In this document: positions 18,045-59,743 of the stretch, one piece after another
Position numbering within the stretch: the stretch's first letter is position 1
How the letters are laid out: each line of letters opens with the position of its first letter
Source of the DNA: an uncultured SAR86 cluster bacterium
GTDB taxonomy: Bacteria > Pseudomonadota > Gammaproteobacteria > Magnimaribacterales > D2472
Assembly: GCA_902594005.1 (NCBI GenBank)
Contig: CACJKN010000002.1
Span: forward strand, 3,639-67,638
Direction: 5' to 3'
Length of the DNA stretch: 64,000 nucleotides
Notes under the pieces: generated by a model
Told to the model about the DNA's origin: nothing
Database searches by the model: none
What the model saw: only the letters and a program-made list of their open reading frames with translations
Translations under genes and position numbers: made by a program

Positions 18045-18122
18045 GCGCCTGTAGCTCAGTTGGATTAGAGTGCTTGGCTACGAACCAAGAGGTCGGAGGT
18101 TCGAATCCTTCCAGGCGCGCCA
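18045..18122 (+). tRNA. tRNA-Arg (anticodon ACG)
   Basis: Hand-folded cloverleaf: acceptor GCGCCTG/CAGGCGC, anticodon arm CTTGG-CTACGAA-CCAAG, T arm GGAGG-TTCGAAT-CCTTC, encoded CCA. The 3' end abuts the stop codon of the convergent gene. Confidence 0.9.
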
Positions 18123-44413: not shown

Positions 44414-44489
44414 TGGAGCGGGTGACGGGATTCGAACCCGTACCAATAGCTTGGAAGGCTATTGTGCTAGCCGTTAACACCACACCCGC
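44414..44489 (-). tRNA. tRNA-Gly (anticodon UCC)
   Basis: Hand fold of the reverse complement: acceptor GCGGGTG/CACCCGC, anticodon arm ATAGC-CTTCCAA-GCTAT, T arm ACGGG-TTCGAAT-CCCGT, CCA encoded. 76 nt. Confidence 0.9.
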
Positions 44490-56658: not shown

Positions 56659-56708
56659 GAGGTGGATATTACATTAAAAAACAACCATAAGGAATTTTTT
56701 TCAACACA

Positions 56709-56928
56709 AAAAAAAACAGAGCTTGCGCTCTGTCTCTTAGTTCGAGTTCCTCAAGTGTCTAAAGTGAGATTTTCTTTAGCTCCTTGGATGCTATCTCTTC
56801 ATCCTTGGTGGGTTTTAAAGCTATTTTTTATCGTATACTCTTTAAAACGCTTTCGCCTTGAGGGCTCTTCCTTTGATTTCTCTTAAGTTTCCGTCTGCAG
56901 TTGGTCTCTTATCGGTCCTCAATAGGTA
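56709..56928 (-). ncRNA. Candidate ~220-nt structured RNA (stand-alone sRNA or cis-acting leader of the pyk operon), GGA-rich
   Basis: Bounded by a near-consensus sigma70 promoter (56935-56962) and an intrinsic terminator (stem CAGAGC/GCTCTG at 56717-56732 followed by 9 U). No ORF longer than 3 codons from any ATG. Hand-found helices: GTTTTAAAG/CTTTAAAAC (9 bp), GGATG/CATCC, CTAAAG/CTTTAG, long-range GAG-CCTCAAG/CTTGAGG-CTC. Six GGA motifs. Confidence 0.4.
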
Positions 56929-56934
56929 AAGTTA

Positions 56935-56962
56935 ATATTACGCTCTTTTTAAAAAGTGTCAA
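56935..56962 (-). promoter_or_regulatory. Sigma70-type promoter for the candidate RNA
   Basis: Minus-strand reading: TTGACA (56962-56957) - 16 nt - TAATAT (56940-56935). Lies 30 nt downstream of the glcB stop. Confidence 0.5.
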
Positions 56963-56992
56963 CACCTAAATGCAAAAAAAGTTAAGTTTTTT

Positions 56993-59667: not shown

Positions 59668-59743
59668 TGGAGCGGGAAACGAGGTTCGAACTCGCGACCT
59701 CAACCTTGGCAAGGTTGCGCTCTACCAGCTGAGCTATTCCCGC
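59668..59743 (-). tRNA. tRNA-Gly (anticodon GCC)
   Basis: Reverse complement folds as acceptor GCGGGAA/TTCCCGC, D arm GCTC-AGCTGGTA-GAGC, anticodon arm CAACC-TTGCCAA-GGTTG, T arm GCGAG-TTCGAAC-CTCGT, CCA encoded. 76 nt. Confidence 0.92.

Follow-up and report, generated by a model that had tools for sequence, protein, structure and literature searches.

A complete IMES-1 RNA gene between glcB and pyk in a SAR86 genome and its conservation in related marine bacteria

The glcB-pyk interval harbors a complete IMES-1 gene

The locus described here lies on a 64-kb stretch of genomic DNA from an uncultured SAR86 cluster bacterium (contig CACJKN010000002.1), referred to in its full length as the window. 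It occupies the interval between the stop codon of the malate synthase G gene, glcB (56995-56993), and the start codon of the pyruvate kinase gene, pyk, and all its features are on the minus strand. An Rfam scan of the whole window identified the RNA family IMES-1 (RF02034) at 56733-56921 on the minus strand, scoring 198.2 bits where the gathering score is 81. The match is full-length (model positions 1-191, E = 5e-45) and demonstrates that the region is a complete IMES-1 gene in a genome of SAR86 (Magnimaribacterales). An earlier note, made by eye from the sequence, had described a promoter, a structured noncoding RNA and a terminator at this place and stated that the RNA matched no family. 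IMES-1 is an already known family, and the region is therefore a by-eye rediscovery and not a new RNA family. The families that the note had proposed to look for gave no match in the window: no covariance model for CsrB/CsrC, RsmX/Y/Z, 6S or known leaders reached significance even at E ≤ 1, and the Csr/Rsm models likewise found nothing at their gathering scores.

IMES-1 was reportedly described from marine environmental sequences by Weinberg, Perreault, Meyer and Breaker in Nature in 2009, and is said to have been seen also in metatranscriptomes by Shi, Tyson and DeLong, in the same journal and year. Weinberg and colleagues reportedly counted it among the most abundant RNAs of coastal ocean metatranscriptomes, at an abundance above that of 5S rRNA. 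To our knowledge, neither its host nor its function was known in 2009. A passage in a later review credits both studies (Weinberg 2009; Shi 2009) with reporting new abundant noncoding RNAs from marine data. A full-text literature search, with the discovery papers outside its reach, returned nothing relevant on IMES-1, on IMES-2 or on small RNAs and CsrA in SAR86, and the paper on the SAR86 strain HIMB1674 mentions neither small RNAs (sRNAs) nor CsrA nor Hfq.

The elements of the transcription unit, in 5' to 3' order, are as follows.

56963..56992, minus strand: A/T-tract, an UP-element-like region (AAAAAACTTAACTTTTTTTGCATTTAGGTG) that begins directly 3' of the glcB stop codon and abuts the -35
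56957..56962, minus strand: -35 hexamer, TTGACA, exact sequence in the window
56935..56940, minus strand: -10 hexamer, TAATAT, separated from the -35 by a 16-nt spacer
56708..56927, minus strand: predicted IMES-1 transcript of ~220 nt (the window copy), with the predicted +1 at A56927 and the 3' limit at the end of the U-tract
56708..56733, minus strand: intrinsic terminator, ACAGAGC, loop GCAA, GCUCUGU, then U9, read from the sequence, with the stem conserved in homologues

The promoter stands at 56962-56935, where the earlier note had placed it, as TTGACA-N16-TAATAT. It matches the consensus at 10 of 12 positions and is kept in homologues. The pattern TTGACA-N15-18-TAnnnT is found at only 2 sites in the whole window, which has a G+C content of ~33%, and the IMES-1 promoter is one of the two. 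Transcription is likely to start at A56927, as suggested by a conserved A 7-8 nt past the -10 that is followed by CC or CG. The ~220 nt downstream contain no sense open reading frame (ORF) longer than 26 aa, the longest having a TTG start, in agreement with the noncoding reading; coding of a small peptide was rejected on this ground and on that of substitutions following an RNA-helix pattern. The terminator (CAGAGC-GCAA-GCTCTG plus U9) was likewise found as described, its U-tract ending at 56708, 49 nt ahead of the pyk ATG (56658), close to the ~50 nt that had been estimated. On the 3' side of IMES-1 come, in head-to-tail order, pyk and the genes for a sodium:solute symporter (SSF) and a GH3 glycosidase, and "pyk operon" is a fair description of them. 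The window copy folds with a minimum free energy of -54.5 kcal/mol (z = -4.18 versus shuffles).

Distribution of IMES-1

A search pattern derived from the 3' half of IMES-1 was run against a collection holding a single genome for each bacterial species. The scan matched 94 loci, 92 of which are genuine IMES-1; the other two, in a member of the Gemmatimonadaceae (L054) and in a Saccharibacteria genome (L060), were discarded as chance matches in high-GC genomes. The genuine loci are nearly all labelled SAR86 cluster bacterium, including three complete chromosomes and HIMB1674, a strain in culture, with a few from SAR92/Porticoccaceae and unclassified Gammaproteobacteria. Rfam confirmed 19 of these other loci at 103-206 bits, the HIMB1674 copy scoring 145.5 bits and the two SAR92 loci 168.6 and 183.2 bits. 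Taking SAR86, SAR92 and marine metagenomes together, ~210 homologous copies were collected, and the marine bacterioplankton origin of the family is borne out, with homologues almost all from SAR86 or SAR92. The pyk protein of the window matches residue for residue one encoded on a contig of the single-cell genome GCA_902590885.1.

Several loci carry labels from outside this range. In a metagenome-assembled genome (MAG) labelled Neomarinimicrobiota (L031) and in another labelled Flavobacteriales (L055), the IMES-1 copy and its downstream flank closely match SAR86 genomes, and these contigs are probably binning errors, judging from that similarity. Two further loci (L071/L081) were flagged by their Woeseiaceae label alone. 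In such cases IMES-1 could mark SAR86 contamination of MAGs. A blastn search against 50,697 phage genomes gave no IMES-1 match, and an origin from a phage or mobile element was rejected after a viral contig collection yielded 3 matches, 2 of them at contig ends and 1 poorly resembling the family; IMES-1 is not phage-borne.

Among the metagenome loci, one IMES-1 fragment is fused to eukaryotic LSU rRNA (L192), another to bacterial RNase P RNA (L130), and six (L101, L102, L129, L132, L158 and L213) to DNA that is unrelated and for the most part high in GC. That these truncated copies mark integration sites or promoter capture was considered and rejected, the contigs being chimeric. Such chimeras are what one would expect from a library that contains a very abundant RNA, and they are, with the likeness of the promoter to those of stable RNAs, indirect evidence of abundance.

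Promoter and terminator accompany IMES-1 into many genomic contexts

We compared the promoter region of 85 loci with enough upstream sequence, all of whose promoter segments differ from one another. The -35 is TTGACA in 65 of these loci and begins with TTGAC in 77, the spacer measures 16 nt in 82, and the -10 takes the form TAATAT at 48 loci and TATATT at 20. A+T makes up 84% of the 45 nt that precede the -35, and the upstream consensus, AAAAAAA-n-tTaAat-TTTTTT-naAaaAAa-GTG-TTGACA, presumably resembles the UP element of the E. coli rRNA promoter rrnB P1. At the other end of the gene, the CAGAGC/GCUCUG terminator stem and a U8-9 tract are kept in nearly all copies, with a variable loop. Promoter and terminator together accompany IMES-1 into at least 15 different genomic contexts. 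Furthermore, at least 16 genomes carry two or more IMES-1 copies, usually a few kb apart; in several of these genomes copies stand in tandem, every one of them having a promoter and a terminator to itself, and on one chromosome the copies lie 280 kb apart. A 279-kb contig of the single-cell genome AAA168-P09 (ARRL01000002.1) has an IMES-1 copy at both ends (L006, L044), and assemblies apparently break at the repeat.

ORFs on either side of 95 IMES-1 copies were called and clustered, with Pfam assignments for the neighbors, and a second set was assembled from metagenome loci anchored on the 5' half of IMES-1, 71 of which have a downstream neighbor. Upstream of the gene, the genome loci present most often a divergent IDO-like gene (31 loci) or malate synthase G (12 loci). 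Downstream, the neighboring gene is convergent in ~41 of the 82 genome loci, and in the metagenome set 40 neighbors are co-oriented and 31 convergent. Since a leader cannot precede a convergent gene and a glcB 3' untranslated region (UTR) cannot follow a divergent one, IMES-1 is a free-standing gene. The possibility, raised in the earlier note, that the region is simply the glcB 3' UTR is excluded by the occurrence of the same promoter behind the divergent IDO-like gene. Together, these results demonstrate, from comparative sequence analysis, that IMES-1 has the organization of an autonomous transcription unit, with a near-consensus sigma-70 promoter, an A/T-tract and its own strong terminator. 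IMES-1 very probably acts in trans, the position between glcB and pyk being one of many interchangeable contexts.

Co-oriented downstream genes in the genome set encode pyruvate kinase (22 loci, at 37-67 nt, the commonest such gene among the 82), pyruvate dehydrogenase E1 (6), symporters (4), FAD monooxygenases (4) and TonB-dependent receptors (3). Convergent ones encode oxaloacetate decarboxylase beta (13), cytidylyltransferase-like proteins (5), DUF1285 proteins (4), an ammonium transporter, a LacI-type product (lacI), KDPG aldolase and a zinc-dependent alcohol dehydrogenase (3 each), and others. Counted in either orientation, the downstream neighbor is pyk, oadB, KDPG aldolase or aceE at 44 of 82 genome and 37 of 71 metagenome loci, so that about half of the neighbors cluster around the pyruvate node, with malate synthase upstream. 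The genes oadB, aceE and eda are absent from the window, and the pyruvate-node loci hence do not represent a single neighborhood. A passage in a secondary report states that Shi et al. tied such RNAs to carbon metabolism, with which this association agrees.

Among close relatives of the window locus (L002, L080, L020, L050, L011 and L062), the four arrangements glcB-IMES-pyk, peptidase-IMES-pyk, glcB-IMES-amt and peptidase-IMES-amt all occur; L002 and L080 belong to the same single-cell genome, AG-359-G23. These four flank combinations are as would be expected if two IMES-1 copies had recombined, for instance by inversion, in which case the source genome should hold a second copy, as peptidase-IMES-amt, outside the 64 kb. 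The window also contains three tRNA genes, at 59671-59743 (minus strand), 18045-18119 (plus strand) and 44417-44489 (minus strand), the first of them just upstream of the thioesterase-glcB-IMES-1 stretch, and tRNA genes within 0.5 kb of IMES-1 are found also at loci L009, L013 and L085.

A covarying fold with conserved unpaired blocks

We aligned 75 distinct IMES-1 sequences, 57-97% identical to the window copy, with MAFFT, and evaluated on them an explicit structure, in which the Rfam architecture was supplemented with a 5' extension and with the terminator. The window copy presents the 5' hairpin and the three-hairpin junction with a long-range closing helix of IMES-1, composed of the following elements.

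56870..56925, minus strand: P1, 5' hairpin domain, with an outer helix CC..UUGA/UCAA..GG and an inner helix UAAG/CUUA, every pair compensated, and an apical 2-bp mini-stem CC/GG whose pairs vary as CG/UG/GC/UA
56749..56863, minus strand: multi-stem domain closed by P2 (CCUCAAG 56863-56857/CUUGAGG 56755-56749) and holding P3, P4 and P5
56812..56848, minus strand: P3, 9-bp helix GUUUUAAAG/CUUUAAAAC, paired in 97.6% of cells, with 9/9 pairs compensated
56786..56804, minus strand: P4, GGAUG/CAUCC with the conserved loop AAGAGA, the stem covarying as AU/GC/UA/CG
56759..56779, minus strand: P5, CUAAAG/CUUUAG with the invariant loop AAUCUCA, paired in 98.7% of cells, the UCUC of the loop being invariant

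Across the alignment, standard pairs occupy 88.6% of cells, a share that is 74.1% for shuffles and does not exceed 46.4% when the partners are slid. Compensatory changes are seen in 34 of the 44 pairs, and the covariation score is 0.392, compared with 0.133 for shuffles and at most 0.098 for slid partners. The helices that had been found by hand in the earlier note are all backed by compensatory changes: the 9-bp GTTTTAAAG/CTTTAAAAC, with double changes at each of its nine pairs, GGATG/CATCC, CTAAAG/CTTTAG and the long-range CCTCAAG/CTTGAGG, corresponding to P2, with double changes in 6 of 7 pairs. The GAG/CTC extension proposed for the long-range helix is invariant on both sides and gives no verdict. 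RNAalifold, when run on the MAFFT alignment, missed P1 and most of P2 owing to alignment gaps, and the explicit structure recovered both. The outer helix of P1 reaches the first transcribed nucleotides, with the 5' CC or CG pairing with the GG or CG of AAGGAAGAG; because of this pairing, the GGA of AAGGAAGAG is partly structural and is not kept as GGA.

The unpaired blocks of the family, CAACUGCAGACGG, GAAAGC, CCACCAAG, CAAGGAGC and AAUCUCA, are all present in the window copy and are conserved in the 75 genome sequences and in 69 metagenome sequences. The block CCACCAAG is invariant directly 5' of P4, and the loop of P3 holds conserved AAGAGU and AAAAAAUAGC. Conservation of at least 90% is reached at 76 of 119 unpaired versus 24 of 74 paired body positions. 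The invariant GAGA of the P4 loop is complementary to the invariant UCUC of the P5 loop, and a contact between the two loops is possible on this basis. In addition, the motif (A/U)AGAG recurs at transcript positions 49, 64, 91 and 134, AGAG being kept at four sites that are unpaired as well as in the stem of the terminator; within IMES-1, (A/U)AGAG is better conserved than GGA.

The apical loop of P1 is palindromic in every copy

The 5' hairpin ends in a small loop that contains a self-complementary sequence.

56895..56900, minus strand: palindromic hexamer CUGCAG within the 10-nt apical loop AA-CUGCAG-AC, a candidate kissing-loop site

The 2-bp mini-stem of P1 that closes this loop covaries (CC/GG, UC/GG, CU/AG, GC/GC, GU/GC), and the hexamer is palindromic in every copy examined by nhmmer (~210). 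Most copies have CUGCAG, whereas the HIMB1674 clade has CUCGAG, two loci have CUUAAG and one has CUAUAG; besides the window, loci L045, L007, L013 and L018 illustrate the palindrome. These four variants are all the possible CU-NN-AG palindromes, and none of the 12 non-palindromic centers was seen; the central pair is GC in 69 sequences, CG in 3 and UA in 2. If the three derived centers were random, the chance of obtaining exactly those three would be 1 in 455. The metagenome set, having been anchored on CUGCAG, contributes nothing to this argument. The hexamer has a predicted unpaired probability of 0.65, against 0.47 for the whole RNA, and the computed self-duplexes range from -5.4 to -9.9 kcal/mol. 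IMES-1 thus shares with kissing-loop homodimeric RNAs an exposed self-complementary hexamer that is kept by compensation. Within a single molecule a hexamer has no means of pairing with itself. These data are most simply read as indicating that two IMES-1 molecules would pair loop to loop as a kissing homodimer.

Proposed mode of action

The observations above suggest the following model. IMES-1 would be transcribed from a sigma-70 promoter with its A/T-tract into an RNA of ~220 nt, with a 5' hairpin and a three-hairpin junction, and we infer that the RNA is produced abundantly and exerts its effect in trans. The folded, possibly dimeric particle would then bind or sequester a protein or another macromolecule. 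We favor this binding over seed-pairing because conservation is higher at unpaired nucleotides of the junctions and loops than in the stems, because (A/U)AGAG recurs in single-stranded positions and because the apical hexamer is always palindromic. As an account of what the abundant folded RNA does, binding or sequestration remains tentative, and we regard it as plausible while rating it somewhat short of probable. The process targeted may be central carbon flux, because half of the copies adjoin pyruvate-node genes. Taken as a whole, mechanism included, the explanation that we consider best is about evenly balanced between being right and being wrong.

Several points weigh against this explanation. 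The 5' end, the abundance and the efficiency of termination of IMES-1 are deduced from the DNA. As to partner proteins, tblastn searches with E. coli CsrA and with Hfq and ProQ gave 0 matches in 763 kb of SAR86 DNA, an uninformative result given that this DNA is a small, non-random part of many genomes. The association with the pyruvate node was noticed post hoc and rests on four locus types, and the argument from the palindrome rests on only ~3 independent substitution events. The search pattern itself imposed ~22 of the conserved unpaired positions, and the 69 intact metagenome sequences, which were anchored on the 5' half, only partly confirm the conserved blocks (CCACC in 69/69, AGGAG in 63/69 and A(A/U)UCUCA in 64/69). 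The sixfold occurrence of AAGAG in the window RNA, against 2.0 expected, has a P of ~0.002 that is uncorrected over many k-mers. Finally, the pyk promoter is weak by consensus at the window locus, where some minor read-through coupling is possible.

Alternative functions

The alternative that survives best is a base-pairing sRNA, in which a conserved loop (AAUCUCA or CAACUGCAGACGG) would act as the seed for mRNAs, possibly those of the pyruvate node. A stand-alone gene with a terminator and a U-tail, tandem paralogues that look like sibling sRNAs, invariant single-stranded loops and adjoining metabolic genes would all suit such a function. The conservation, however, spans the whole molecule, with its junctions and several loops, and not one short seed; the fold is more elaborate than that of typical seed sRNAs; and the abundance above 5S rRNA reportedly given by Weinberg and colleagues in 2009 would be out of scale for stoichiometric antisense. 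We consider a base-pairing function unlikely.

The earlier note had advanced a stand-alone sponge of the Csr/Rsm type, which would titrate a CsrA/RsmA homologue through multiple GGA motifs and thereby regulate carbon metabolism. The first half of this proposal has stood, as evidenced by the promoter and terminator retained in at least 15 contexts and by the multi-copy status of the gene; these traits, the carbon-flux genes that adjoin it and the single conserved site in single-stranded AAGGAG/AGGAGC would all fit a Csr/Rsm sponge. The six GGA triplets are also where the note had located them, but their enrichment does not hold, the expectation from dinucleotide shuffles being 4.1 ± 1.2 and not ~2 (P(≥6) = 0.11). 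Family members have between 1 and 9 GGA, and five of the six sites in the window copy are variable or lie within stems, as can be seen from their occurrence in the 75 aligned sequences.

Transcript position 14: GGA in 8/75
Transcript position 40: GGA in 24/75, with GGG in 39
Transcript position 61: GGA in 36/75
Transcript position 128: GGA in 30/75, within the covarying stem P4
Transcript position 149: GGA in 72/75, in the junction CAAGGAGC
Transcript position 182: GGA in 55/75, half within P2
56780..56785, minus strand: AAGGAG in the P4-P5 junction, the only family-wide conserved GGA, Shine-Dalgarno-like and with no start codon after it

Only the CAAGGAGC site is therefore a feature of the family, and the first of the two CCAAGGA repeats lies inside P4, so that its GG is structural, given the covariation of that stem. 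Csr/Rsm RNAs hold an excess of GGA mostly in hairpin loops, an arrangement that IMES-1 does not have. A search for the GacA/UvrY box TGTAAG-N6-CTTACA with up to 4 substitutions found none in the 238 nt upstream of the -35. Because GGA is not enriched, the one conserved site lies in a junction and not in a hairpin loop, no Csr/Rsm model of Rfam matched and no GacA-box-like element lies upstream, the Csr/Rsm half of the proposal is not supported, and we regard it as quite improbable.

The second proposal of the earlier note was a cis-acting leader, attenuator or riboswitch; in this reading, the pyk-SSF-GH3 operon would owe its expression to regulated read-through past the IMES-1 terminator. It drew on the lack of a good promoter before pyk; pyk is also the commonest co-oriented downstream gene, and the conserved multi-stem junction resembles an aptamer. 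A consensus scan of the window indeed found no promoter between the terminator and pyk. The statement holds only in part, however: a TAATAT at 56671-56666 lies 7 nt before the pyk ATG, and the corresponding position in other SAR86 lineages holds TTGCAA-N16-TAATAT, the -35 having seemingly been displaced by an insertion in the lineage of the window. The genome is, moreover, largely without Shine-Dalgarno sequences and has -10-like boxes near many start codons, and these motifs suggest that pyk is probably transcribed from a promoter of its own, with a leader that is very short or missing. As side observations on the same subject, only 6 of the 44 window ORFs of at least 200 aa have a Shine-Dalgarno-like motif, and several window ORFs have a -10-like box ~5-15 nt before the ATG, which suggests that leaderless or short-leader mRNAs may be widespread in this SAR86 genome.

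Cis-acting leaders lie always 5' of, and co-oriented with, the gene that they regulate, whereas about half of the IMES-1 copies face a convergent gene and others precede aceE, SSF, FAD monooxygenase, TonB-dependent receptor and patatin-like genes. The terminator stem and U8-9 tract are invariant, and no pairing that would compete with the terminator was found: neither of its strands has complementarity of more than 5 nt (G-U included) to the body of IMES-1, and P2 and the terminator do not overlap. A leader or riboswitch is rejected as the function of the family and is highly improbable. Equally far from likely is binding of the 30S subunit through an exposed Shine-Dalgarno-like AAGGAG, with global modulation of translation. 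One could adduce for it that 63 of 69 independently anchored sequences keep AGGAG and that no start codon follows this motif, the scarcity of Shine-Dalgarno-like motifs among the long ORFs of the window (6/44) and a promoter that resembles those of stable RNAs, but the proposal is based purely on sequence and requires a motif that may not be free, given that RNAalifold pairs its GG with the invariant CC of CCACC. On the whole, what the earlier note observed is partly confirmed and its interpretation is partly supported.

Comparison with known RNAs and implications

With respect to the Rfam description of IMES-1, nothing structural differs in the window copy, which has the same helices, loops, junctions and marine origin. 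What is added here is the SAR86/SAR92 host, the conserved promoter and terminator, the 5' extension of P1, the palindromic loop and the multi-copy status, additions that may in part overlap with the 2009 papers. IMES-1 resembles CsrB/CsrC and RsmX/Y/Z in being stand-alone, often multi-copy, ended by an intrinsic terminator and, presumably, highly expressed and linked to carbon metabolism, but RNAs of the CsrB/RsmY type are strings of similar small hairpins, whereas IMES-1 has a rigid, conserved multi-helix fold. It is similar to 6S RNA as a very abundant stable RNA that would act by protein binding and not by base pairing; 6S RNA, however, is a long rod with a central bubble and IMES-1 a branched junction, and the Rfam scan of the window does not place IMES-1 among the 6S RNAs. 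The Hfq/Crc-sequestering CrcZ and CrcY of Pseudomonas are, as IMES-1 would be, abundant sponges with a repeated short purine-rich motif that govern the use of carbon sources, in their case in catabolite repression, and Pseudomonas, SAR92/Porticoccaceae and SAR86 are all gammaproteobacteria. CrcZ and CrcY have an AAnAAnAA motif and a sigma-54 promoter, in contrast to the (A/U)AGAG and the sigma-70-type promoter of IMES-1, and no sequence relationship was found.

The candidate dimerization loop, AA-CUGCAG-AC, is comparable to the dimerization initiation site of HIV-1, the loop of which is AA-GCGCGC-A, both presenting a 6-nt palindrome with flanking purines in a small apical loop. GOLLD, which Weinberg and colleagues are said to have described in the same 2009 paper as IMES-1, is another point of comparison. 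Text from a recent article presents GOLLD, ROOL and OLE as homo-oligomeric bacterial RNAs and reports that GOLLD self-assembles (PMC12286853). These three RNAs are much larger than IMES-1, and the dimer of IMES-1 is only predicted.

In its most far-reaching form, the model would make IMES-1 the dominant regulatory RNA of SAR86, expressed from a promoter of the stable-RNA type and joined by its palindromic loop into a homodimer that sequesters an RNA-binding protein or the 30S subunit and thereby sets the flux through the pyruvate node, as the representative of a new class of sponges unrelated to Csr/Rsm, 6S and CrcZ; we think that this extended version is doubtful. IMES-1, an orphan RNA since 2009, is now placed in SAR86 (Magnimaribacterales) and its relatives, and the bona fide copy in HIMB1674, the only cultured strain of SAR86, makes it amenable to study in culture. 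Two of the hypotheses put forward here, dimerization through kissing loops and the link to the pyruvate node, are cheap to test. SAR86 ranks among the surface ocean's most abundant bacterial lineages, and IMES-1 would, if the extended model is true, be its dominant regulatory RNA.

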